A stretch of 64,000 nt of DNA from Syntrophobacterales bacterium (GTDB lineage: Bacteria > Desulfobacterota > Syntrophia > Syntrophales > UBA5619): the NCBI GenBank assembly GCA_019429105.1, contig JAHYJE010000008.1:2931-66930 (forward strand), written 5' to 3'. How positions within the stretch are numbered: the first letter of the stretch is position 1; each line of letters starts with the position of its first letter. This document shows positions 15,778 through 58,066 of this stretch, one piece after another. Below the pieces are notes generated by a model. It was not told the origin of the DNA and ran no database searches. It saw only the letters and a program-made list of their open reading frames with translations. A program made the position numbers and the translations under genes.

Positions 15778-15870
15778 TGCCGGGGTCCATAATTCTCATT
15801 TTCCGGAGCTGATCATAATCCTGATTTGGGATGTTAACGCAACGCGCGATTTTTTGCCAGTCAATCATTG

Positions 15871-16024
15871 GAGGCAATTGCAAAACTCCCCATTCTTGTC
15901 ATTCCCGCAACGATTCTGAGCGGGAATCTGGTTCTAACTGCTTGAAAAAACCATATTCCCGATAGAGACATTATGGACATTAAGCTGCGCTTTCGGGAAT
16001 GACAAATGGTTTTGCAATTGGCTC
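15871..16024 (+). mobile_element. MITE-like element, copy A (154 bp, lacks the left 21-bp module)
   Basis: GAGGCAATTGCAAAAC...GTTTTGCAATTGGCTC terminal inverted repeats, flanked by ATTG/ATTG. Near-identical to copies at 34320, 41074 and 41799. Confidence 0.85.
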
Positions 16025-16270
16025 ATTGTCATGTATTTCCTCCGCGCGGGCAGATTGCGTCCAGAATATTCAGTTTTACAGCTACTTGGGCAATAAGCGC
16101 TCCGTCAACGCAGAGAGTGCCGTTGTAATCAGAGACGAGATGAAGCAATCTCCGTTGGCCGAAACCGGGGATTGTCAATTCTATCACGATTATTTCCTTA
16201 TAGGGCCGCCGTTGTAAAAGAGAGAAGCAATGATGAGGCGGCCCGGAAAAAATGGCGGCAGCCTCATGGC

Positions 16271-17902: not shown

Positions 17903-18139
17903 ATGGTGTACCTGTCCCCATAAAAAATCCCCGATCGCCTCCCGGCACAGGGGACTAAAACATCGTAAATCCGCGGTTCTTCTATATGATGAGGGGAATA
18001 TTGTCAAGACTTTTTCCTTGCTGCGGCGCTGCTTTCCCTGATCGTGATTTTTCACGGTTGCACAAAAGGCGGCAATGGTCTATTCAACTAAAAATAGGAC
18101 AGTGAACTGACCCGGGGCGCATTTATTGAGGATGAAGGC

Positions 18140-24276: not shown

Positions 24277-24412
24277 GAAGTTCCCTAATCTCCGTTAATC
24301 ACAAGCTTGGAAAAGGCCCCGGAGGGAAGGGAGGAGGAGACTCCCCAGCCGGGGCCGGCGGGGAGGGCGCCCCACTTTCATCAGCCACGGTTCAACTTTT
24401 TGCCCCTGGTTT

Positions 24413-32945: not shown

Positions 32946-34268
32946 TTAATTGATCATCATGCCGGGAAGCCAAGTGGCGAGCTGCGGGAAAAAGCAAAGA
33001 ATCAGCATTCCCAGAAAAAGCAGCAGAATAAAGGGTACTGACCCCCACAAAATGGTGTTGAGCGGGATGTTCGGCACAATCCCCTTGACAACGTAAAGAT
33101 TCAGTCCGACCGGCGGCGTAATCAGCCCTGCCTCGAGATTCAACGTCATCAGCACTCCAAACCAGACGGGGTCAAAGCCCAGAGCCTTCACAATGGGGTG
33201 AATGATGGGAGAGACGATGAGGATGATCGCCACCGGCGGAAGAAAACAGCCCAGCACAAGCAGCAGGATGTTGATCATGAACATGGTAATCCAGCGGCTT
33301 ACCTGCATGTCCATAATCATGTGGGTCAATGTCTGGGCGATGAAAAGGTTTGTAAGGACGGCGCCGAAAAGAAAAGAGGTGGCGATGATCATCATGATCA
33401 TTGTACTTTCGCTGGTCGTTTTCAGCAGTATTTCCAGGATGTCCTGCGGACGGTACATTTTGTAGAAGATAATGGCGATGATGAGTATCAAAAAGGCGCC
33501 CACGGCGGCCGCCTCGCTGGGAGTGGCCCAGCCGGTGTAAAGGGAGCCCAGCACCATTAAAACTACCACGATAAAGGGCAGCACTTTTAACGTAGAGGAA
33601 AATTTCTGCGCTAATGTGTAGATTTCCCCTTTTTGCAGGGGAAAAGCGGCTACATCTTTTCTTCTGCCCAGCGTGTATCCAATGGGCACCCAGGCTGCAA
33701 ACAATAAAGCAACAAGGAGGCCGGGAAAAATCCCCGCCATGAACAGTTTGCCGATGGATGTTTCCGTTGCTATTCCATAGATGATCATGGTGACGCTCGG
33801 CGGAATAAGTATGCCCAGTGTTCCTCCGGCGGTAATGATCCCCGTGGCCAGACCGTCCGGGTAGCCGCGTTTGCGCATTTCGGGAATTCCCATAGTGCCG
33901 ATCGCTGCCGCCGTCGCCGGGCTCGAGCCGGTAAGCGCCGCAAAAACGGCGCATCCGGCGATGTTGCCGATTCCCAAACCGCCGGGAATCTTGTACAGCC
34001 AGCGATGAAAGCACTCGTAAAGGTCTCCGCCGGCGCGGGAGATGGCGACAATCATCCCCATGAAAAGAAAGAGCGGGATGGAAAGAAGACTGAAGTCGTT
34101 TACCCCCTCATAGATGGTTTCGGCCATCATCGAGATTTGATAGACATCCATGAAAAGGAAAATGGCGATCAGGGATGTGACTCCCAGCGCAAAAGCAATA
34201 GGCATTCCACTGAAAAGAAATACCAAGGCAGTAAAGGTAACGATACCCCCTGTCCAGAGTGGATTCAT
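32946..34268 (-). CDS. dctM: TRAP transporter large permease subunit
   Basis: Polytopic 440-aa protein typical of DctM (GMPIAFALG..., GIPEMRKRGY, GTLGILIPPS). ATG at 34266-34268 preceded by GGGAGAG. The 42-codon track extension (MNIKLRFPAQNRCGND...) lies in MITE copy B. Confidence 0.9.
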   Translation of the reverse strand: MNPLWTGGIVTFTALVFLFSGMPIAFALGVTSLIAIFLFMDVYQISMMAETIYEGVNDFSLLSIPLFLFMGMIVAISRAGGDLYECFHRWLYKIPGGLGIGNIAGCAVFAALTGSSPATAAAIGTMGIPEMRKRGYPDGLATGIITAGGTLGILIPPSVTMIIYGIATETSIGKLFMAGIFPGLLVALLFAAWVPIGYTLGRRKDVAAFPLQKGEIYTLAQKFSSTLKVLPFIVVVLMVLGSLYTGWATPSEAAAVGAFLILIIAIIFYKMYRPQDILEILLKTTSESTMIMMIIATSFLFGAVLTNLFIAQTLTHMIMDMQVSRWITMFMINILLLVLGCFLPPVAIILIVSPIIHPIVKALGFDPVWFGVLMTLNLEAGLITPPVGLNLYVVKGIVPNIPLNTILWGSVPFILLLFLGMLILCFFPQLATWLPGMMIN

Positions 34269-34319
34269 GATTAACTCTCCCGGTATAATGGCCGCTGCCG
34301 TTCTTTTATGCAAACAAAG

Positions 34320-34494
34320 GAGGCAATTGCAAAACTCCCCATTCTTGTCATTCCCGCAACGATTCTGAGCGGGAAAACGAAGTTTAATGTTCATAATCTG
34401 GTTCTAACTGCTTGAAAAAACGATATTCCCGATAGAGACATTATGGACATTAAGCTGCGCTTTCGGGAATGACAAATGGTTTTGCAATTGGCTC
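34320..34494 (+). mobile_element. MITE-like element, copy B (175 bp)
   Basis: Same terminal inverted repeats as copy A, flanked by AAAG/AAAG. Lies between dctQ (stop 34524) and dctM (start 34268). Confidence 0.85.
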
Positions 34495-34523
34495 AAAGTT
34501 ATAATTTTGCCCCTGCGCCGCTC

Positions 34524-35024
34524 TTACGTGTGCCGCTTTTTTACAAGTTCCATGATTTTTATCACATACTGCAGAGAGGTCAGAATCATACCCACCGGAA
34601 TAATTGCGTAGGGATAAATGAGAGGGGTTGATAAAAGGGAAGAGGAAAGCCAGTTCCCTTCCCAAGCTTCCCACCACATGACGCAGCCTCGCCATGACAG
34701 TACAATGCAAAATAGCATCGCAATAAACGAGGTCGCTATGTCCAGTCTGCGGCGAAGTCGAAAAGGGAGCTTATATACGACCATGTCTATATTTATGTGG
34801 GCATGGTGCTTGAGCCCGTAGGGCGCGCCCAGAAAGGTGGCGGCGATCAGCAGGTAAACGGCGATCTCCACCTGCCAGATGGTTGCCGCATTCCAGACAT
34901 AGCGAACCACTACCTGCTCGACAATAATGAGGGTCGCGGCCAGGATGGCAAAGCCGCTCAGATATCCCGATATCTCCGAGAGGCCGCCAATTATCCGGAG
35001 AGCCCTATTTTTGACTGGAGCCAT
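34524..35024 (-). CDS. dctQ: TRAP transporter small permease subunit
   Basis: 166 aa with four hydrophobic helices, located between the dctP and dctM homologues. Confidence 0.8.
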   Translation of the reverse strand: MAPVKNRALRIIGGLSEISGYLSGFAILAATLIIVEQVVVRYVWNAATIWQVEIAVYLLIAATFLGAPYGLKHHAHINIDMVVYKLPFRLRRRLDIATSFIAMLFCIVLSWRGCVMWWEAWEGNWLSSSLLSTPLIYPYAIIPVGMILTSLQYVIKIMELVKKRHT

Positions 35025-35048
35025 CTTGCACCTCTTCCCTTAGGTTTC

Positions 35049-36053
35049 CTATGGTTTTGTTGCCAAATCCAGGAGCTCTTTGCCGCGCGGCACCTTTTCG
35101 GCAAATTGCTTCCAGGCCGTCTCTTCGGCCACCTTTTTCCAGGCCTGCCATTCATCCTTGGTCATCGCATGGACCTTGACTTTATTGGCAGTGAACACCT
35201 TTCCAACCTCTTTATTGGCGGCTACAGCGTCATCCCGGGCCTTCTTTTCCATTTCCACCCCCACCTTAAGGACGGCCTTTTGTTGAGACGGGGTCAGGGA
35301 TGCCCAGGTTTTGGCGCTTATTACCAGTGGTTCTGCCATGTACCAGATGGCGTAGGTTTCCGGGGTGTTGAAATAGTCCAATTGTTCATAAAGGCGGTAG
35401 GAAATAAACGATTCCGCCGAGGTAAGGCAGGCATCCAGCACCTTTGTCTGAAGGGCCGTGTAAATCTCGGAGGAAGGCATGCTGGTTATCGAGGCCTTCC
35501 GGGTGTTCAGCAGGTGCTCAAAGAACTTGCCGGCGGCCCGGAATTTCAGCCCTTTGGCGTCCTGGGGCAGGATAACCGGTTTGCCGCGGCTGCCGATTCC
35601 CCCGCCATACCACAGCCAGGTAATGATCTTCATCCCCTTGTCTTCGGATATTTTGGCGACCCTTTTCCCGATCTCCCTGTCTTTCCAGGCCATCCCTTCA
35701 TCCACATCCTTGATGATGCACGGCATGAGGGTGATTTCGAGTTCGGGGATTTTCCCCGAGGCGTAGGCCAAGGGAAAAATCGAAAAATCAAGCGCGCCTT
35801 TGGCCATGGCATCGTACTGGGCCGTCGCCTTGAAAAGCGCGGAGGAGGGGAAAATCTTGAAGGTAAGCTCTCCGTTGGTCGCTTTTTCCACCCCCTTGGC
35901 AAACTCGACGGCCAGGGCGTTGCGGGCGTCTGCTTCGGTGAATTGGTGGGAAATTTTCAGTTCTCGGGCCTCAACTGCACTTACAGTAAAGATTGTGCAC
36001 CAGAACAACCCGACCAACAAGGCGCTGAAAACACGTTTTCCGAAATGGTTCAT
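35049..36053 (-). CDS. dctP: TRAP transporter substrate-binding protein
   Basis: Signal peptide MNHFGKRVFSALLVGLFWCTIFTVSAVEA, then a DctP-like body (LKISHQF.E...). ATG at 36051-36053 preceded by AAAGGAGGAG. Confidence 0.88.
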   Translation of the reverse strand: MNHFGKRVFSALLVGLFWCTIFTVSAVEARELKISHQFTEADARNALAVEFAKGVEKATNGELTFKIFPSSALFKATAQYDAMAKGALDFSIFPLAYASGKIPELEITLMPCIIKDVDEGMAWKDREIGKRVAKISEDKGMKIITWLWYGGGIGSRGKPVILPQDAKGLKFRAAGKFFEHLLNTRKASITSMPSSEIYTALQTKVLDACLTSAESFISYRLYEQLDYFNTPETYAIWYMAEPLVISAKTWASLTPSQQKAVLKVGVEMEKKARDDAVAANKEVGKVFTANKVKVHAMTKDEWQAWKKVAEETAWKQFAEKVPRGKELLDLATKP

Positions 36054-36211
36054 ATCGCTCCTCCTTTTATTGTTGGAGATCTTGAAAGTATTGAAACATT
36101 TTCCGCTTTTTCCCGGGCGCCGCCCCCGGAGCAAACAATCAGGCAAAACCAGAGTTATCCGGTCAGATATAAAACGCTCCCTCTCCCCGGATCGAGGAGA
36201 TAGAAAACACT

Positions 36212-36232
36212 CCCTCTCCCCCCGGGAGAGGG
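36212..36232. repeat. REP-like GC-rich palindrome
   Basis: CCCTCTCCC-ccc-GGGAGAGGG followed by TTGGGGTGAGGG. A half copy, CTCCCTCTCCCC, lies at about 36176-36188. Confidence 0.4.
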
Positions 36233-36446
36233 TTGGGGTGAGGGCAAAACGGTCCCTGCAATTCCCTAACCGGACAACACTGATTTTTTATATTAAGGCA
36301 TGATAATCTTCGCTGCCCTTATAAAACGTCAGAGTCCATCCGTCTATCAGGAAAGCTTGATATTTTTGTGCTACATCCTTGAGAAACTCACATTGATGAT
36401 TGTTGCTTGGCGAAGCGGCGGCAGTGTCTTGAAGGGGCTTTCTGCG

Positions 36447-37097
36447 TTAGATGGAGGTCAGCCCATGCTGGATGGCGAATTTGACAAGGCCCGGCAGGTC
36501 TTTTATCCCGAGCTTCTTCATCAGATGACTGCGGTACGTCTCCACGGTTTTCGGGGACAAAAAAAGAATTTCCGCAATCTTGTTGTTAGGGTTTCCTTCC
36601 ACCAGCAGTTGGAGAATCGCCCGTTCGCGGGGGCTCAATCTGTCCAGGGGGCTCTTCGCTTCGGCAATTTCCCGCGACCGGAGGTAATCGGTAATGATCG
36701 TGTCGGACAGAGACGGGCAAAGGTAGGATTTTCCCGAATTAACGGAGATAATCGCCTGGATCACATCGGCGCCCGCCGATTCCTTCAGGAGATAACCCTT
36801 CGCCCCGGCCTTGAAGGCTCGGAAAATATGTTCCGCGGTGGAATACATCGACAACATGATAATGTTGGTTGCAGGACACGCCTCTTTGATCTGGGCCGTT
36901 GCCTCGATGCCGTTGAGAATCGGCATGGCGATGTCCATAAGCACTATGTTCGGACACAGGGACGCAACCTGACGGACGGTCTCCCGTCCGTCGCCCGCTT
37001 CGCCAACGACGCTGATTTTCGGGTTGGTATCCAGCAATAAGCGAAGTCCTTCCCGGAACATGGCGTGATCGTCCGCCAAAAAAACCGTGATGATCAT
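36447..37097 (-). CDS. NarL/FixJ (LuxR)-family response regulator
   Basis: REC domain (VFLADDHAMFREG...VLMDIAMP) plus LuxR HTH (LSPRERAILQLLVEGNPNNKIAEILFLSPKTVETYRSHLMKKLG). Confidence 0.9.
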   Translation of the reverse strand: MIITVFLADDHAMFREGLRLLLDTNPKISVVGEAGDGRETVRQVASLCPNIVLMDIAMPILNGIEATAQIKEACPATNIIMLSMYSTAEHIFRAFKAGAKGYLLKESAGADVIQAIISVNSGKSYLCPSLSDTIITDYLRSREIAEAKSPLDRLSPRERAILQLLVEGNPNNKIAEILFLSPKTVETYRSHLMKKLGIKDLPGLVKFAIQHGLTSI

Positions 37098-39298
37098 AAC
37101 GGCACCTCTACCGATACACGGGTCCCTTTGCCCTGAACCGAAGTTATGTCTCCCGCCCCACCCACCGCGATTGCCCGCTCAACCATCGTGCTGAGCCCCC
37201 ATCCCCAGTGTTCGCTGCGTTTTTCACGCTCCTGTTGTTTGTACCCGACGCCGTTGTCGGCTACGGTAATGTGCAAATGATTTTCCCCGACGGTGATGGT
37301 TATGACCGCTTCCGTTGCCTGCGCATGTTTGATTACGTTGGTCAATGCCTCCTGAACAATGCGGAACATCGCATTTTCAATATGCTGGGAAAGGCGGGGG
37401 ATCGCATCATTGATCTGGACAACCACCCGGATGTCGGCCCGGGAGGCGCATTGCTCGCCGTACAGGCGGATCGCGGCCTCCAGTCCATAATCGTCGAGGA
37501 CGGGCGAGCGCAGCTCCTCCATCAAATTGCGGATGCTGTCCGTGGTCTGTTTGACGATTGTCAGCGAGTCGGTTATTCGCGAATGAAGCTGTTCCGAATA
37601 TTTTTCCGGAAGCAGGGTCTTGAGCATATTGATGTTCATCCCCAGAATCGCCAGGTTCTGCCCTATCCGGTCATGCAGCTCGCGGGAGATGATTTTCCGG
37701 TTATTTTCCTCAAGTTCCGCCATCTCCCAGGTTAGCTCGCGGAGCTGGGCGTTTTTTTGCCGTATCTTCTCTACCGCCCGCTTGCGTTCCGTGACGTCAT
37801 TGAGAACCGTTATCTCGCCTTCCTTGATGAAGATCGTGCGAAATTCGATTTCCCTTGCCTGTCCGTCCTTGCAGGCGACGGTGAATTCCGCATCGCCTCT
37901 GCGTCCAGGGGAGTTCTTTTTTTCTCTCCAGAAAGCCCTTACTTTTTTCAGGTAATCACTGTCCGGAAATGCCTGTTTCTGCCACTCCCGGACGACGGCA
38001 AAATCCTCGGCGGTATAACCGATGATGTCGGTGACCGCCGGATTCAAATACTGGAAGGCGCCCTGCCGGTCGATCAGGACGATGCCGCTGGGGTCGTTTT
38101 CAAGGATCGTGGAGAGGATGTTCCGTTCCTTTTCCAGCTCTCGGTCCGTCCGTTTGTGCTCCAGCAGTTCGTGCTGAAGGCTGGACAATGTTTCGCGCAA
38201 CTGCTTGGCCATACGGGAAAAGCTGTCTGCCAGCGTGCCGATTTCGTCGCCCCGGGTCCTGACTGCTGAGAGTCGCAAGCGTACTGACTCAAGATCGCTG
38301 TCGCTGAAATTGCCGAACGTCAGATCCGTAACGGCCTCGGTGAGGACGTCAATCGGGAGCAGCGCCCACCTTATTGCCCACCAGGAGGCGACAACGAGGA
38401 TGAGAAGCGCCCCGCAGATGATTGTCAACGTCATGTTCCGGAAGAAAATTATGTTGGAGAGCACTTCCGCTTTTTGCTGCTGCACAACTACTCCCCAGCC
38501 ATTGTTAAGCAGATCGATCTGGGCGAACCATTCTTTGCCATCCTCTGCGCGGAAGGTGATCAACCCTTTCTCCCCGCGTCTGAGCGCCGTGATCGGCGAG
38601 GACGAACTCAGATCCCGGAAACTGTCGAAGAAGGCCGGATCGGGATGGGCGATCACCAGATTCCGGTTATCGACCAGATAGGCCGAGCCCGTTTTTCCGA
38701 GGCGGGGGACCTGCACCTGCCGGCTGAGATTGTCCAGATCCATTGCAAACATGCCGACCCCGACGATGCTTGCCGCACCGTTTTTGATCGGCATCGACAC
38801 TACCAGCCCGGGCCGGTTGATGGTTCGGCTGATTACGCTTTCAAAGGTCACCGGTGCCCCCTTCCTGGCCTGCTGGAACCAGGAGCGGTCGCGATAGTCG
38901 ATCGGTCTCTTGTCATCGCTGCGGGCGATATTCATGCCGCGCAGGTCGGTTGTGCTCAAAAGATACATATAAGGATAGGCGGCGGCCATCTTTTTCAGCA
39001 GCAGCTTTTGCCGGGTCGGGTTCATCCCGATCATGTCATTTTGGGAGATGAAGTACTGGAAGGTTTTTATCTGGGTATCCAGCCATAAAGATACCGAGAG
39101 GCCCAACTGGCGATTGGCATTGAGCAATTGCGTCTGGGCGTTTTGCTCCATGATGGACAGGGCGCGGCTGCTGATAAAAATCGCCGAGGTGACGAGAATC
39201 AGGACGGCGATTGCCAGCACCATGATGATCAGGCGGGTTTTGAGCCCCGCCTGACGGGAAATTTTGCCGAATGCCTTACGCCGTAAGCCTGAGATCAT
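37094..39298 (-). CDS. sensor histidine kinase (Cache-like periplasmic domain, HAMP, PAS, HisKA_3, HATPase_c)
   Basis: 734 aa. TM, then a roughly 250-aa extracytoplasmic domain, a second TM, then a PAS-like block (ILENDPSGIVLIDRQG...). H-box ISRELHDRIGQNLAIL. GWGLSTMVERA. 4-nt overlap with the regulator gene. Confidence 0.88.
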   Translation of the reverse strand: MISGLRRKAFGKISRQAGLKTRLIIMVLAIAVLILVTSAIFISSRALSIMEQNAQTQLLNANRQLGLSVSLWLDTQIKTFQYFISQNDMIGMNPTRQKLLLKKMAAAYPYMYLLSTTDLRGMNIARSDDKRPIDYRDRSWFQQARKGAPVTFESVISRTINRPGLVVSMPIKNGAASIVGVGMFAMDLDNLSRQVQVPRLGKTGSAYLVDNRNLVIAHPDPAFFDSFRDLSSSSPITALRRGEKGLITFRAEDGKEWFAQIDLLNNGWGVVVQQQKAEVLSNIIFFRNMTLTIICGALLILVVASWWAIRWALLPIDVLTEAVTDLTFGNFSDSDLESVRLRLSAVRTRGDEIGTLADSFSRMAKQLRETLSSLQHELLEHKRTDRELEKERNILSTILENDPSGIVLIDRQGAFQYLNPAVTDIIGYTAEDFAVVREWQKQAFPDSDYLKKVRAFWREKKNSPGRRGDAEFTVACKDGQAREIEFRTIFIKEGEITVLNDVTERKRAVEKIRQKNAQLRELTWEMAELEENNRKIISRELHDRIGQNLAILGMNINMLKTLLPEKYSEQLHSRITDSLTIVKQTTDSIRNLMEELRSPVLDDYGLEAAIRLYGEQCASRADIRVVVQINDAIPRLSQHIENAMFRIVQEALTNVIKHAQATEAVITITVGENHLHITVADNGVGYKQQEREKRSEHWGWGLSTMVERAIAVGGAGDITSVQGKGTRVSVEVPL

Positions 39299-39362
39299 CC
39301 CTGCCTCCTTGGAAATTGCGAAGAAGGATATTTGTAACTATTCAGCGTACCCATCAAGTGAT

Positions 39363-39457
39363 GTTATTCCCGAATGCTTCTATCGGGGATCCATGGTTTT
39401 TCAAGACATGAAAGCTGGATTCCCGATTACTAATTTCGGGAATGACAGTCTTTTTAA
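39363..39457 (-). repeat. degenerate internal fragment of the MITE-like element (no terminal repeats)
   Basis: TTATTCCCGAATGCTTCTATCGGGGAT..GGTTTTTCAAG...TTCCCGATTACTAATTTCGGGAATGACAG parallels the interior of copy D (41821-41946). Confidence 0.55.
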
Positions 39458-39485
39458 AGCGCTGAATAGTCAAGGTTATTCTTTG

Positions 39486-41039
39486 TTAAACCGGAATGTT
39501 GCCGTGCTTTTTGTATGGTCGCAATTCCTTCTTGGAACTCAGCATATCAAACGCCCGGATAAGCGTCGGGCGAGTTTCGCGGGGGGCGATGATCGCATCG
39601 ACGTAGCCCCGTTCGGCCGCGATATAGGGGTTGGAAAAGAGATCACGGTACTCCTGTATCTTTTCCGCCTTTTTCGCCGCCGGGTCTTCGGCGGAATTGA
39701 TCTCCTTGCGGAAAATGATGTTCGCCGCCCCTTCCGCGCCCATGACTGCGATCTCCGCCGTCGGCCAGGCAATGACGAAGTCGGCGCCGAGGTCCTTGCT
39801 GCACATCGCCAGATACGAGCCGCCGTAATCCTTCCGGGTGATCAGCGTGATCTTCGGCACGGTGGCTTCGGAGTAGCACCACAGAAGCTTCGCGCCGTGG
39901 CGGATGATTCCCTTCCACTCCTGGTCGCTTCCCGGCAGGTAGCCGGGGACGTCGGCGATCGTCAGAAGCGGGATATTGAAGGCGTCGCAAAACCGGATGA
40001 ACCGGGTTGCCTTGTCGGAGGCGTCCACATCGAGACAGCCGGCAAGGTATTTCGGCTGATTGGCAATTATGCCGATCGCCCGCCCGCCCATCCGGGCGAA
40101 GGCGATGATGATGTTGCGGGCGTAGTACTGGTGCGGCTCAATGATTTCGCCGTTATCGACGATCGCGCGGATTACGCCCTTCATATCGTACATCCGGCGC
40201 GGGTTCTCCGGGACGATGCCATCGAGGGCCTCATCCATTCGGTCCGACGGATCCGGCGTTTCGATAAAAGGCGCGGTCTCGGTATTGTTGGAGGGAAGAT
40301 AGCTCAGCAGTTTTCGGATTTCCCGGAGCGCCTCCGCGTCGCTCTCGCAGGCAAAGTGGGCGACCCCGCTTTTGGCGTTATGGGTCATCGCGCCGCCGAG
40401 GCTCTCAAAATCGATCTTTTCCCCGGTTACCTCCTTGATCACCTCGGGGCCGGTGATGAACATATAGGAGGTTTTTTTGGTCATGAATATCCAGTCGGTC
40501 ATAGCCGGCGAATAGACCGCACCGCCGGCCGTCGGCCCCATGATCGCCGAGATCTGCGGGATTACCCCGGAGGCGCTGGAATTGCGAAAAAAGATGTTTC
40601 CGTACCCGGAGAGGGCATCCACTCCCTCCTGAATGCGTGCCCCGCCGGAGTCGTTGATGCCGACCAGGGGCGCTCCGGTTTTCAGCGCCGCGTCCATGAC
40701 CTTGCAGATCTTTTTTGCATGCATTTCGCCCAGACTGCCGGCCCGGGAGGTGAAGTCCTGCGAATAGGCAAAGACGGTGCGGCCTTCGACCTTGCCGAAG
40801 CCGGTGATCACCCCTTCGGCTGGTATTTCGACGTTTGCCATGCCGAAACTGCCGCCGCGATGGCGGACAAACAGATCCAGCTCCTGGAACGTTCCGGGAT
40901 CAAAAAGCAGGTCGAGTCGTTCGCGGGCGGTCAGCTTCCCCGACTCGTGCTGTTTTTTGATCCCATTTTCTCCGCCCATGGCCTCGGCCTTGGCTTTTCT
41001 GGCCTCCAGATCCCTAAGTTTCAACGGCTTTTCGCTCAT
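39486..41039 (-). CDS. acyl-CoA carboxyltransferase (methylmalonyl-CoA carboxyltransferase / propionyl-CoA carboxylase beta family)
   Basis: GKLTARERLDLLFDPGTFQELD, NDSGGARIQEG, GPTAGGAVYSPA, IIANQP..LAGCLD, RFCDAFNIPLLT. ATG at 41037-41039 preceded by AGGAGAG. The track extension lies in MITE copy C. Confidence 0.9.
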   Translation of the reverse strand: MSEKPLKLRDLEARKAKAEAMGGENGIKKQHESGKLTARERLDLLFDPGTFQELDLFVRHRGGSFGMANVEIPAEGVITGFGKVEGRTVFAYSQDFTSRAGSLGEMHAKKICKVMDAALKTGAPLVGINDSGGARIQEGVDALSGYGNIFFRNSSASGVIPQISAIMGPTAGGAVYSPAMTDWIFMTKKTSYMFITGPEVIKEVTGEKIDFESLGGAMTHNAKSGVAHFACESDAEALREIRKLLSYLPSNNTETAPFIETPDPSDRMDEALDGIVPENPRRMYDMKGVIRAIVDNGEIIEPHQYYARNIIIAFARMGGRAIGIIANQPKYLAGCLDVDASDKATRFIRFCDAFNIPLLTIADVPGYLPGSDQEWKGIIRHGAKLLWCYSEATVPKITLITRKDYGGSYLAMCSKDLGADFVIAWPTAEIAVMGAEGAANIIFRKEINSAEDPAAKKAEKIQEYRDLFSNPYIAAERGYVDAIIAPRETRPTLIRAFDMLSSKKELRPYKKHGNIPV

Positions 41040-41073
41040 TTTTTTCTCTCCTGATTTTAATGTGAACTCAATA

Positions 41074-41246
41074 GAGGCAATTGCAAAACTCCCCATTCTG
41101 TCATTCCCGCAACGATTCTGAGCGGGAAAACGAAGTTTAATGTTCATAATCTGGTTCTAACTGCTTGAAAAACCATATTCCCGATAGAGACATTATGGAC
41201 ATTAAGCTGCGCTTTCGGGAATGACAAATGGTTTTGCAATTACCTC
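41074..41246 (+). mobile_element. MITE-like element, copy C (173 bp)
   Basis: Terminal inverted repeats as in A and B (right end GCAATTACCTC), flanked by AATA/AATA. Lies between the epimerase stop (41251) and the carboxyltransferase start (41039). Confidence 0.85.
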
Positions 41247-41250
41247 AATA

Positions 41251-41655
41251 TCACACCTTTTCGCAGAGCTCCACCAGAACCCCGCCGCTGTCCTTCGGGT
41301 GAAGAAACGCGATCTTTTTTCCCCCGGCCCCCATCCGCGGCTTATGGTCGATCAGCCGGAAATTTTTTGCCTCCAGCTCGCGCAGCGCCTCTTCCAGATT
41401 GTCCACCGCGAAGGCGATATGTTGGATTCCTTCACCTTTGGCCTCAATGAATTTGGCAATGGGACCGTCCGGGGCGGTGGACTCCAGCAGTTCGATCTCG
41501 ACAGCGCCAAGGGGAAGAAACGCGGTCTTCACCTTTTGTTCGGCAACCGTTTCTTCGCCTTCCAGCTTGAGCCCGAGCAGCTCTGAATAGAATTTCAAGG
41601 ACGCATCGATGCTTTTTACCGCAATGCCAATGTGGTCTATCTTGACGGCTTTCAT
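41251..41655 (-). CDS. mce: methylmalonyl-CoA epimerase (VOC/glyoxalase fold)
   Basis: 134 aa. IDHIGIAVKSID.SLKFY...LG, VEIELLE, GIQHIAFAVDNLEEAL, GGKKIAFLHPKD.GGVLVEL. Confidence 0.85.
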   Translation of the reverse strand: MKAVKIDHIGIAVKSIDASLKFYSELLGLKLEGEETVAEQKVKTAFLPLGAVEIELLESTAPDGPIAKFIEAKGEGIQHIAFAVDNLEEALRELEAKNFRLIDHKPRMGAGGKKIAFLHPKDSGGVLVELCEKV

Positions 41656-41798
41656 AATTCCCCCCTGTTTTTTTCCGGAAATGCAATTTTTTGATGGCCG
41701 GCGAGGGATACCAGAAGGCGCATTTTATGTCAAGCGGGGATAGTCGGCCTTTTCTTTGTTTAAGGTGCCGAAAACACAAATATTATTTTATAACAAAA

Positions 41799-41972
41799 GA
41801 GCCAATTGCAAAACTATTTGTCATTCCCGAAAGCGGAGCTTAATGTACACAATGCTTCTATCGGGAATACGGTTTTTCAAGCAGTTAGAACCAGATTATG
41901 AACATTAAACTTCGTTTTCCCGCTTAAAATCATTGCGGGAATGACAGAATGTGAGAGTTTTGCAATTGGCTC
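41799..41972 (-). mobile_element. MITE-like element, copy D (174 bp, inverted, more diverged)
   Basis: GAGCCAATTGCAAAAC...GTTTTGCAATTGGCTC, flanked by AAAA/AAAA. Its interior is the reverse complement of copies B and C, with substitutions. Confidence 0.8.
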
Positions 41973-42009
41973 AAAAGGCAGATTTTTGGTTTGTGAAACC
42001 CCGGAACCC

Positions 42010-43578: not shown

Positions 43579-44316
43579 TCAGTGGCAGGCGCTGCAACCG
43601 GAACTGCCGGCGATTATCTGTGAGCCATGACACGCTAAGACACTGCAAGATGAAATGCCGTTGGCTGCAACGTATCCTTCATGCAGGCTGGAATTGTCCG
43701 ACCATTCGAGCGGATGTTTGGATGTCGGCCCGCCGAGATGACAGTCGCTGCAGGAACGACCGCTTTGAAAAACCCCGTCCAGATTTGCGCCGTGGCAACT
43801 GGCAGTCGCGCAGCCGGCAGTGCCGTTCGTCTTGGCGTAGTTCCCGTGCGAGGTGCCGGGCAAGGTCGTCCACTCAGGTGGATGGTAGGCATTCGGCCCG
43901 CCGAGATGACAGGCGCTGCAGGAGGGGCCGCTTTGGAAAACCCCTGCCAGGTTTGTGCCGTGGCAACTGGCGGTCGCGCAGCCGGCCGTGCCGTTTGCCT
44001 TGGCGTAGCTGCCGTGGAGGGCATAGGCATAGGCTCCCCACTGGGTGGGATGGTAAGAAGCATGGTTGCCGATGTGGCAGGTGGTGCAGGATGTCTGGGC
44101 AATACCGCCCTGGTAATCCGCGCCATGACACTCGGCGCATGTTTCCATGTTAGCCTTGGCCGCCGTCTTATGGCCGGTGGGCAGCCAGCCGGTAGGATGC
44201 CCCGTAGAAGAATCAAAACTGGACTGGGAACTGGAGCTCCCGCATCCCGCCAGCGCGAAGACGGAAATAAACAGCAGCAAGGCAAAGGTCAAAGAGGTTT
44301 TTGTTATCTGTGACAT
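43579..44316 (-). CDS. multihaem c-type cytochrome lipoprotein with CX4CH...CXXCH repeats
   Basis: ATG at 44314-44316 preceded by GAGAGGTG. Lipobox FALAGC. Five CXXCH (CAECH, CTTCH, CSACH, CSDCH, CSACH) and three CX4CH (CATASCH twice, CSVLACH). Two near-identical modules of about 54 aa. Confidence 0.85.
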   Translation of the reverse strand: MSQITKTSLTFALLLFISVFALAGCGSSSSQSSFDSSTGHPTGWLPTGHKTAAKANMETCAECHGADYQGGIAQTSCTTCHIGNHASYHPTQWGAYAYALHGSYAKANGTAGCATASCHGTNLAGVFQSGPSCSACHLGGPNAYHPPEWTTLPGTSHGNYAKTNGTAGCATASCHGANLDGVFQSGRSCSDCHLGGPTSKHPLEWSDNSSLHEGYVAANGISSCSVLACHGSQIIAGSSGCSACH

Positions 44317-49895: not shown

Positions 49896-49916
49896 AAGTT
49901 TACTTTTCTGCTGAAA

Positions 49917-50621
49917 TTATTGTTTCGTAACGATCTCGACCTTTGCCCTTTTGTTGAGCTCGTCGACCCAGGCTGCCCGGGTCATTCCCTTTTCCTGCGT
50001 TCCCTTGGCGACGAGCTTGGCAAGCAGAATATCCTTTTCCATCCGCTTCTCGAAAGCGGGCGGCGTCATACCGTGACTTTTCAAAAAGGCCTCGAAATCC
50101 TTGTCGGAAAGTTTGAGGTTTTTCTTGACGGCGCTGATTTTGTCGGCGATTTCCTGAGGGGACACGGTGATTTTTTCCTTGGCCGCCTCGGTCACCAGTA
50201 TTTTATCATGGATTATTTTATTCAGAATCTGCCTTCTCAAATCCGCCGCGGCCGCTTTGCCCGCGGGGGTGGAATCAGACTGGCCGTTTATACCGGTCGT
50301 CTTTTTATAGAGGTCTAATTTCTTATCCACCTCCGCGATGGTGATCTTTTCCCCATTGACGATGGCGGCCGTGTTCCAGCCGCCTTTCAGCGGGTTCGGC
50401 AGCAGGCCGGTAAAAATCAGCAGGGCCGCGCCTGACAAAACCACCAGCACTATGGCTATGATCGCATAGAGCTTTTTCCTGCCCGGTTCCTTCTGCTCCC
50501 GGGAGGTCGCCGTTATTGAATCTTTCACTTCGTTTTCGTTCACTTCCTTCCCGCATGCGCCGCAGATCGCCAATCCGTTTGCCAGGGCGCCTCCGCAGTG
50601 GGGACATTGCTGATTTTCCAT
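49917..50621 (-). CDS. membrane-anchored SurA-N-terminal-domain-like chaperone with N-terminal zinc ribbon
   Basis: CPHCGG...CGACG, one TM (LYAIIAIVLVVLSGAALLIF), then VNGEKITIAEVDKKL...ILNKIIHDKILVTEAAKEKITVS..E..., as in SurA/PpiD N-domains. GGGAGG RBS. Confidence 0.6.
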   Translation of the reverse strand: MENQQCPHCGGALANGLAICGACGKEVNENEVKDSITATSREQKEPGRKKLYAIIAIVLVVLSGAALLIFTGLLPNPLKGGWNTAAIVNGEKITIAEVDKKLDLYKKTTGINGQSDSTPAGKAAAADLRRQILNKIIHDKILVTEAAKEKITVSPQEIADKISAVKKNLKLSDKDFEAFLKSHGMTPPAFEKRMEKDILLAKLVAKGTQEKGMTRAAWVDELNKRAKVEIVTKQ

Positions 50622-52338: not shown

Positions 52339-52465
52339 TTCGTCATAATCTCCACCTTCGCCTTTTTGTTAAGCTCACCGATCCAGACCTCCCATCCCTT
52401 TTTCCTGCGTTCCCTTGGCGGCGCGCTTGGTAGGCAGAATATCCTTTTCCATCCGCTTTTCTCGG
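52339..52465 (-). pseudogene. decayed duplicate of the 3' end of the SurA-like gene
   Basis: About 80% identical by eye to 49924-50052 (e.g. CCTGCGTTCCCTTGGCG...GCAGAATATCCTTTTCCATCCGCTT), with indels that break the frame. Confidence 0.7.
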
Positions 52466-57348: not shown

Positions 57349-58012
57349 ACCTCTCTTCCCTCCGGTGGAACTCGCTGAACCGGAGGGGCTCCTGGCCGTA
57401 GGCGGCGATCTGTCGCCGGAAAGGCTGCTTGCCGCTTATAGCGCCGGCATTTTCCCCTGGTACAGCGAAGGCGAGCCGCTTCTCTGGTGGTCGCCGGATC
57501 CCCGGTTTGTCCTTTTCCCGGAAGAACTGCGCGTCTCCCGGAGCATGCGGCAGTTTCTCAAAAAGAAAATAGTTGAGACAACCTTCGACAAGGCGTTTCC
57601 TGCGGTGATCTCCGCCTGCGGCAGCCGTCCGCGTCCCGGGCAGGACGGAACCTGGATCACCCCGGAAATGGTCGCCTCCTACAACAATCTTCATAAACTT
57701 GGGTTTGCCCACTCCGTCGAGGCCTGGGACGGCGAAAAACTGGTCGGAGGGCTCTACGGCGTCTCGCTGGGCCGCACGTTTTTCGGCGAATCGATGTTTT
57801 CGGCAATCCCGAATGCCTCCAAGGCAGCCTTGATCGCCCTTGTTTCTTTTCTGCGCGCGCGGGGCTTTGACCTCATCGATTGTCAGGTGGAAACCGGACA
57901 TCTGGGAAGTATGGGGGCCCGTTTTGTTTCCCGTGCAGAATTCTGCCGTCTGCTGCAGGCTTCCCTGCGACATGAGACCTTGCAAAAAAACTGGGGGGAA
58001 AGCGAAGCTTAA
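57323..58012 (+). CDS. aat: leucyl/phenylalanyl-tRNA--protein transferase
   Basis: [48 protein letters not shown]. Overlaps the clpA end by 26 nt. Confidence 0.9.
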
Positions 58013-58066
58013 TGTCCACAAAGCGAAGCTTAATGTTCATAAAGCGCAGCTTAATGTTCATAAAGC
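58000..58066 (+). repeat. three tandem 21-bp units of the MITE module, plus a partial fourth
   Basis: AAGCGAAGCTTAATGTCCACA / AAGCGAAGCTTAATGTTCATA / AAGCGCAGCTTAATGTTCATA / AAGCA.. The aat stop (58010-58012) is the TAA of unit 1. Confidence 0.85.

Follow-up and report, generated by a model that had tools for sequence, protein, structure and literature searches.

Miniature inverted-repeat elements with IS1182-type ends in a Syntrophales genome: anatomy, insertion polymorphism and probable mobilisation in trans

Introduction

A 64,000-nucleotide stretch of contig JAHYJE010000008.1 from a Syntrophobacterales bacterium (GenBank assembly GCA_019429105.1, positions 2,931 to 66,930 of the forward strand), hereafter the window, contains four short repeats that had been read in an initial annotation as one family of the MITE (miniature inverted-repeat transposable element) type. 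The locus raises the question of whether these repeats are transposon derivatives and, if so, which type of transposase would have moved them and how recently. From their ends, their flanking duplications, the empty sites in relatives and the insertion sequences (ISs) that share their ends, we conclude that the elements are very probably MITEs with the terminal inverted repeats of an IS1182-family clade, mobilised in trans and recently active in this lineage, in support of the MITE interpretation proposed initially. Coordinates without a prefix refer to the window, and comparison loci are designated by L numbers.

Results

Anatomy of the window copies

The four full copies of the initial annotation (Table 1) were recovered both from the sequence and from matches to the end motif GAGSCAATTGCAAAAC, which occurs in the window eight times with zero or one mismatch, exactly at the eight predicted ends, against a background of 1.8 matches in dinucleotide shuffles even with three mismatches allowed. 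The elements open with GAGGCAATTGCAAAAC (or GAGCC...) and close with the reverse complement of the same, the 16-bp ends agreeing at 15–16 of 16 positions in every copy, as had been described. Likewise, the inner inverted TGTCATTCCCG / CGGGAATGACA boxes lie directly inside the element ends where they had been placed, with 11 window matches to the TGTCATTCCCG motif compared with 1.4 expected, and the 4-mers claimed as target duplications are exact direct repeats that abut both ends of the respective copies. An nhmmer profile built from the four copies detected no further full copy in the window.

The near-identity initially ascribed to the copies amounts to 98.3–99.4% in pairs among the three on the plus strand, which differ by 1–3 substitutions, and to 89–90% between these and the inverted copy, which, at about 90% identity, appears to be older than the other three. 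The short variant at 15871 lacks one 21-bp internal unit. In agreement with the reported lack of coding capacity, only chance open reading frames (ORFs) of at most 57 aa overlap the copies, and elements across the family measure 100–175 bp, with no transposase gene inside, which agrees with the small size (below ~300 bp) and non-coding nature usual for MITEs.

Table 1. Elements and unoccupied sites in the window
Feature	Position	Strand	Flanking repeats or ends	Remarks
MITE copy, 154 bp, short variant	15871–16024	+	ATTG at 15867–15870 and 16025–16028	Downstream of prfC
Empty target site ACAA (ATC/ACAA/GCT)	24301–24304			L247 has a 174-bp copy at L247:3024–3197
MITE copy, 175 bp	34320–34494	+	AAAG at 34316–34319 and 34495–34498	dctQ–dctM spacer
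Palindromic element, 134 bp	39337–39470	−	Perfect 11-bp inverted ends ACTATTCAGCG	Two ATTCCCG...CGGGAAT hairpin boxes
MITE copy, 173 bp	41074–41246	+	AATA at 41070–41073 and 41247–41250	
MITE copy, 174 bp, inverted	41799–41972	−	AAAA at 41795–41798 and 41973–41976	
Unoccupied site	49915–49920			Metagenome contig L178 (~92% identical flanks) has a 100-bp MITE deletion derivative with an AAAC duplication

Insertion polymorphism in relatives

The relatives used for comparison were located by way of carboxyltransferase and PrfC homologues, both proteins being encoded in the window, and are 87–95% identical to it at the nucleotide level. The closest PrfC matches are named 'MAG: Syntrophales bacterium' (MAG, metagenome-assembled genome), and exact-sequence look-ups of the window epimerase and DctQ matched no record. 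In L247, with 94–95% identical DNA, the site of the 15871 copy is precisely empty and reads tcaatc-ATTG-tcatgt, with a single ATTG at L247:14331–14334, compared with tcaatc-ATTG-MITE-ATTG-tcatgt in the window. The opposite arrangement is found at the empty target site of the window, where aatc-ACAA-gctt corresponds to aatc-ATAA-MITE-ATAA-gctt in L247. At both sites, the genome without the element carries the 4-mer once, consistent with the initial reading of the flanking 4-mers as duplications.

The remaining copies are likewise missing from relatives. The dctQ–dctM copy is absent from L125 (~87% identical, fully syntenic), where the flanks meet at one coordinate (BLAST breakpoint, window 34318/34501 to L125:15752); the 41074 copy is absent from the epimerase–carboxyltransferase spacer in L124, L125 and L126; and the 41799 copy is absent from L125 and L126, which have other sequence there. 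Single target copies at the empty sites of L247 and the window, together with the empty L125 spacer, are the traces expected of MITE insertion. Some positions are less simple: near 18125, L247 and L248 carry a 132-bp copy within a 350-bp segment missing from the window, and the pair formed by L178 and the window near 49917 is imprecise, with an additional 17-bp indel.

Occupancy thus differs between genomes that are 94–95% identical in DNA, with gain-type junctions in both directions. Because, in addition, three of the copies are 98–99% identical, the family appears to have been recently active in this Syntrophales lineage.

As a separate observation, the hsp20–epimerase spacer of L125 (L125:8560–8760) holds, in place of the 41799 MITE, ~150 bp that differ from the window and include a G/C-rich palindrome, CCCCACCCTGACCCTCCCCTTGAAGGGGAGGG, that may represent another repeat family.

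Duplication length and target preference

A metagenome scan with a query made of the end plus the GTCATTCCCG box returned at least 120 stretches, many of the copies being located at contig ends. Among the matches listed, at least 80 are complete elements, mostly of 131–132 bp, with others of 100, 122, 153 and 174 bp. These listed matches and the window copies together provided 63 unique insertion sites with usable flanks. An exact 4-bp repeat abuts both ends at 36 of these sites, compared with 0.96 by shuffled pairing, and the consistency of ends and duplications outside the window, on which the initial annotation had made its interpretation depend, is thereby borne out. A 5-bp duplication was also considered, as C precedes the 4-mer in all four window copies, and was rejected: duplications of 5 or 6 bp occur at none of the 63 sites, for which reason the preceding C is ascribed to target preference. 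The targets are A/T-rich, with 60% C at −1 and 60% G at +1 and the consensus A-C/NNNN/G-T, in which the slashes delimit the 4-mer. The same C/NNNN/G tendency is seen at the sites of the autonomous ISs in L043, L254 and L255 (see below).

These data bear on an alternative origin, according to which the copies would not be DDE derivatives and would instead be repetitive extragenic palindromic (REP) sequences or bacterial interspersed mosaic elements (BIMEs) spread by a REP-associated tyrosine transposase (RAYT; IS200/IS605-like Y1), or else generic hairpins that stabilise or terminate mRNA. Such an origin would fit the long-hairpin form of the element, the intergenic location of all copies and the repetition of ATTCCCG...CGGGAAT palindromes, which recur in the 39337–39470 element without the MITE ends. 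REP elements, however, are palindromes of 20–40 nt with neither target duplication nor IS-type ends, and the copies do not share these properties: they show fixed 4-bp duplications, empty sites with precise single-copy targets, and 16-bp ends identical to those of transposase-bearing ISs, and no terminator-like site was called within them. We consider this account very improbable, since the duplications and the sharing of ends already refute it for the most part.

Autonomous insertion sequences with the same ends

The initial annotation had proposed a search for an IS with the same ends as the likely autonomous partner. Such ISs exist, although none was found in the host-lineage loci inspected. 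An alphaproteobacterial MAG contains a 1419-bp IS (L043:636–2054) whose 16-bp ends are perfect and whose duplication is AATA; it encodes a 384-aa ORF with the Pfam domains DUF772 and DDE_Tnp_1, and a 76%-identical relative is held by L030, also alphaproteobacterial. The transposase belongs to a very large family, with over 8000 clusters in the database at E ≤ 1e-10, and contigs for two further members gave the end pairs of L253, L254, L255, L256 and L257. Four of these are ISs of 1448–1463 bp with ends GAG(G/C)(C/T)AATTGCAAAA(C/T) and 4-bp duplications, namely L253 (1463 bp, GGAT), L254 (1448 bp, GAAT), and L255 and L257 (both AGCA); the fifth, in L256, is an end pair that spans 1607 bp and lacks a duplication. 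The ends in L043 and L253–L257 match the MITE ends at 14–16 of 16 positions. Two further end pairs were rejected as ISs, those of L026 (1590 bp) and L054 (1259 bp), which enclose ordinary host genes and are for this reason interpreted as two separate MITEs each.

The L043 transposase is 47–52% identical over 97–99% of its length to its nearest relatives on annotated plasmids, which the Prokaryotic Genome Annotation Pipeline (PGAP) names 'IS1182 family transposase' and 'IS1182-like element ISUnCu17 family transposase'. The ends of these plasmid ISs, GAGCYTCTTGCAAAA and GAGGCTCTTGC..., are homologous to those of L043 and are accompanied by the 4-bp duplications ATGA and TGGT. The family placement rests on these named relatives because the transposase falls below the NCBIfam cut-off for IS1182. 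On this basis, the partner would belong to a divergent IS1182-type clade that is related to IS5, and neither to IS5 proper nor to IS701, the two source types suggested initially.

In the mechanism envisaged, a DUF772 + DDE_Tnp_1 transposase supplied in trans would bind both MITE ends, excise or copy the element, and insert it at a 4-bp staggered cut. This cut would favour A/T-rich A-C/NNNN/G-T sites, and its repair would leave the 4-bp duplication.

Several findings weigh against this interpretation. Seventeen of the 63 insertion sites have no duplication, and some filled/empty pairs show extra indels. The best NCBIfam model for the L043 transposase, transpos_IS1182, reaches 88 bits where its cut-off is 270, and IS5 models also match weakly, at 31–47 bits. 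No IS1182-type transposase was found by tblastn in the window, in Syntrophus, Syntrophales and Smithellaceae loci, or in 120 MITE-bearing metagenome loci, the scattered sequence inspected adding up to ~1.6 Mb and falling well short of a complete genome; the initial statement that the window lacks a transposase gene accordingly stands for this type of protein, the sole one tested. The end-matching ISs include those of alphaproteobacterial MAGs (L043, L030) and of metagenome contigs (L253–L258). Finally, the MITE interior, with its ATTCCCG boxes and 21-bp unit, is unlike the subterminal parts of these ISs, so that an origin of the MITE by simple internal deletion from them is unsupported.

Some of the same observations would suit a history in which the copies are dead relics, the MITE being no longer mobile here, its partner lost, and the polymorphism a product of old insertions and later deletions. 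The lack of a partner transposase in any lineage locus inspected agrees with this view, and the extra indels of some presence/absence pairs suggest deletion. Against it stand the three copies separated by only 1–3 substitutions, the clean gain-type junctions found both ways in spite of a host divergence of 5–6% in DNA, and the limited and scattered sequence in which the partner was sought. We regard the relic history as quite unlikely. Of the initial claim that the family is mobile or recently mobile, recent insertion is upheld by near-identity and polymorphism; current mobility in the lineage is suggested because the copies are near-identical and gain-type polymorphism runs in both directions at this divergence, no partner having been found there.

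Ends shared across phyla

The 16-mer was scanned against one genome per species, yielding at least 120 stretches, many of the single matches being necessarily due to chance. Among the matches listed, ~45 stretches contain the motif again in inverted orientation no more than 4 kb away; in most of these pairs the ends enclose 40–300 bp that are unrelated in sequence, and the pair is flanked by 4-bp repeats. The paired matches derive from Syntrophus/Smithellaceae MAGs, Desulfobacterales, Nitrospirota, Chlamydiae, Lentisphaerae/Victivallales/Kiritimatiellia, Zetaproteobacteria and Treponema, and include a 153-bp copy in a Syntrophus MAG (L066) that matches the short variant of the window over the 70 nt of left end compared. 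Overall, the 16–18 bp end GAGSCAATTGCAAAAC(T) is nearly unchanged in at least eight distant lineages (Syntrophales, Desulfobacterales, Nitrospirota, Chlamydiae, Lentisphaerae/Kiritimatiellia, Zetaproteobacteria, Treponema and Alphaproteobacteria), with an unrelated interior in each.

The scan also revealed 'micro' elements of 37–50 bp, which comprise little beyond the two inverted ends, in Chlamydiae, Lentisphaera, Victivallales and Treponema MAGs (L018:4372–4413, L109:5072–5121, L084:5762–5811 and L046:2893–2929); at least that in L018 has a 4-bp duplication, TTAC.

Internal structure and related repeats

RNA folding, recommended in the initial annotation, gave one long hairpin for either strand (free energies, −56 and −61 kcal/mol; z-scores relative to shuffles, −5.6 and −6.2), so that the inverted symmetry spans nearly the whole element and not the 16-bp ends alone. 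The interior of the Syntrophales MITE is built from ATTCCCG-N-CGGGAAT hairpin boxes, the ATTCCCG...CGGGAAT palindrome having six matches in the window compared with 0.04 expected, and from the 21-bp unit AAAGCGMAGCTTAATGTYCAT. Size variants probably arise by gain or loss of this unit and by deletion between internal ATTCCCG boxes.

A fold of this strength would also be expected if the repeats were a cis-regulatory RNA or the gene of a structured non-coding RNA, copied to several places in the genome; what look like target duplications would then be coincidental A/T-rich flanks. The three copies in co-directional contexts have, moreover, one orientation relative to transcription, which with n = 3 is not significant. 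However, no Rfam family matches the MITE, either at the gathering score or at E ≤ 1, and both strands fold equally well, as a DNA palindrome would. Occupancy varies between closely similar genomes with exact 4-bp boundaries, and in many phyla these ends enclose interiors that are unrelated to one another; they also enclose transposase genes. An RNA of this kind is therefore extremely improbable, and the evidence continues to favour a MITE.

The 'degenerate fragment without ends' that had been annotated at 39363–39457 proved to be part of the 134-bp palindromic element of Table 1, which has inverted ends of its own. It carries no GAGSCAATTGCAAAAC ends and no evident duplication, and the MITE profile matches it only internally (nhmmer, 39348–39466, E = 4.8e-6). 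The element is present in L124 (93.5% identical DNA) and absent from L125, and no other copies were found in the sequence inspected. Its two ends have stayed complementary, which makes a separate palindromic element with modules in common with the MITE a likelier reading than a randomly decayed copy.

Independently of one another, the ATTCCCG boxes and the 21-bp unit are also found at places other than the MITE. It is conceivable, though rather doubtful, that one IS1182 clade seeded many independent MITE families and that the modular Syntrophales interior reflects an exchange of modules with other repeats of the genome or provides functional host-factor or RNA-level sites in operons.

Other repeats were recorded in the window. 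A tandem array of 3.2 copies of the 21-bp unit AAAGCGAAGCTTAATGTTCAT, which is the internal module that separates the 174-bp from the 153-bp MITE variant, lies at 57999–58066, at or just past the 3' end of the Leu/Phe-tRNA protein transferase gene according to alignment with the annotated L125. The array has at least six copies in L125 and none in L126, and a weakly end-like GAGACCTTGCAAAA precedes it at ~57976. Unrelated to the MITE is a 150-bp tandem direct repeat at 43699–44016 (two copies, 83% identical, spacing 168 bp), and a 69-bp direct repeat (90% identical) at 49983–50051 and 52393–52461, 2.4 kb apart, is probably contained in paralogous genes.

Gene context of the copies

Pfam assignments confirmed the gene context, including the copies in the dctQ–dctM and epimerase–carboxyltransferase spacers that had been noted initially. 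The dctP, dctQ and dctM genes are on the minus strand, and the copy in the Q–M spacer starts 25 nt past the dctQ stop codon and ends 51 nt short of the start of dctM (32946–34268). The 41074 copy is located between the stop codon of the methylmalonyl-CoA epimerase gene (glyoxalase fold) and the start of the carboxyltransferase gene, both on the minus strand, and the 41799 copy between the epimerase gene and the divergent hsp20, between their conserved divergent promoter-like sites. The copies thus occupy short intergenic spacers, also inside the dctPQM and epimerase–carboxyltransferase operons, and leave the reading frames intact. Both operons merit flagging, as a 175-nt hairpin would now be contained within a polycistronic transcript and may influence operon expression.

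Two candidate effects on neighbouring genes were rejected. A hybrid outward promoter at the 41799 copy, composed of TTGCAA in the element end and a flanking TAAAAT, matches the consensus weakly, at 9 of 12 positions, and sits upstream of a conserved native promoter-like site. The idea that the 15871 copy had interrupted a small gene, which would begin at 16032 behind a strong ribosome-binding site, was dropped because the reconstructed ORF comprises only 46 aa and because L247 has a stop after six codons and the ribosome-binding site is not conserved there.

The segment beside the 15871 MITE differs in length between strains, with 181 bp in the window (within the compared interval 15871–16205) as against 2.6 kb in L247 (11698–14330), where a 72-aa ORF and a gene of the dCache/PAS/GGDEF type are located; in L250, prfC is followed by a different set of genes again. 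The sequence downstream of prfC thus appears to be a hotspot of variation between strains, in which a deletion or insertion next to the MITE may have occurred.

Discussion

Significance and comparison with known systems

For the annotation of genomes and MAGs from Syntrophales and Syntrophus, the results define a repeat family by its consensus ends, its 4-bp duplication and its A-C/NNNN/G-T target. These repeats break assemblies, and their differing occupancy between genomes 94–95% identical makes them candidate strain-level markers. The literature searched contained no paper on MITEs in Syntrophus or Syntrophales; the MITE end sequence matched unrelated primers only, and 'ISUnCu17' had no match.

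Among abundant intergenic inverted repeats, the Correia elements of Neisseria are bounded by terminal inverted repeats of 26 bp, duplicate TA and, like dRS3/NIME (Neisserial intergenic mosaic elements), are co-transcribed with operons. The ATTCCCG...CGGGAAT boxes of the window recall dRS3, ATTCCC-N8-GGGAAT, from which they differ by a spacing of 11–32 nt instead of 8 nt.

The MITE ends resemble those of the ISUnCu17-like or 'IS1182 family' ISs of Aeromonas, Comamonas and Acinetobacter plasmids and of the ISs in L043, L030 and L253–L257, which have ends GAGC/G-N3-4-TTGCAAAA(C) and 4-bp duplications. Unlike the MITE, these ISs are autonomous, with a 375–390 aa DUF772 + DDE_Tnp_1 transposase, a length of 1.42–1.46 kb (L043, L030, L253–L257) and unrelated subterminal sequence. 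In a related anaerobic group, Chunjie, a MITE from Geobacter uraniireducens (Chen et al. 2008) and the classic intra-operon example, resembles the present family in its recent activity, size variants, stable fold and insertion inside an operon, and differs in its 21-bp terminal inverted repeats and 9-bp direct repeats, as against 16 bp and 4 bp here, which points to a different transposase family (as summarised in PMC3184786 and PMC10969869).

Two published systems are derived from IS1182-family partners. The ISMac2-derived MITEs of the archaeon Methanosarcina acetivorans are similar in size (160–169 bp) and are bounded by inverted repeats, and one group has a 4-bp direct repeat; they differ in their host, in the length of the repeats (25–26 bp), and in having the partner in the same genome (PMC3852290). 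MITEPye1 of Paracoccus yeei is a 159-bp long stem-loop with 18-bp terminal inverted repeats and 4-bp direct repeats, whose partner is ISPye18 of the IS1182 family (PMC11578231). Going by its description, it shares with the window MITE a size of ~160 bp, the lack of coding content, an intergenic location, IS1182-like ends, 4-bp repeats and presumed mobilisation in trans. Its host is an alphaproteobacterium and it is present in 1–3 copies per genome, compared with four in 64 kb and at least 120 metagenome stretches here; the ISPye18 transposase is not among the plasmid matches to the partner transposase, and thus probably represents a different IS1182 clade. IS1182-derived MITEs with 4-bp repeats have therefore already been published, and the present family is a further such case that leaves the picture of how MITEs work unchanged, its most notable addition being a 16-bp end so widely common to otherwise unrelated MITEs across phyla.

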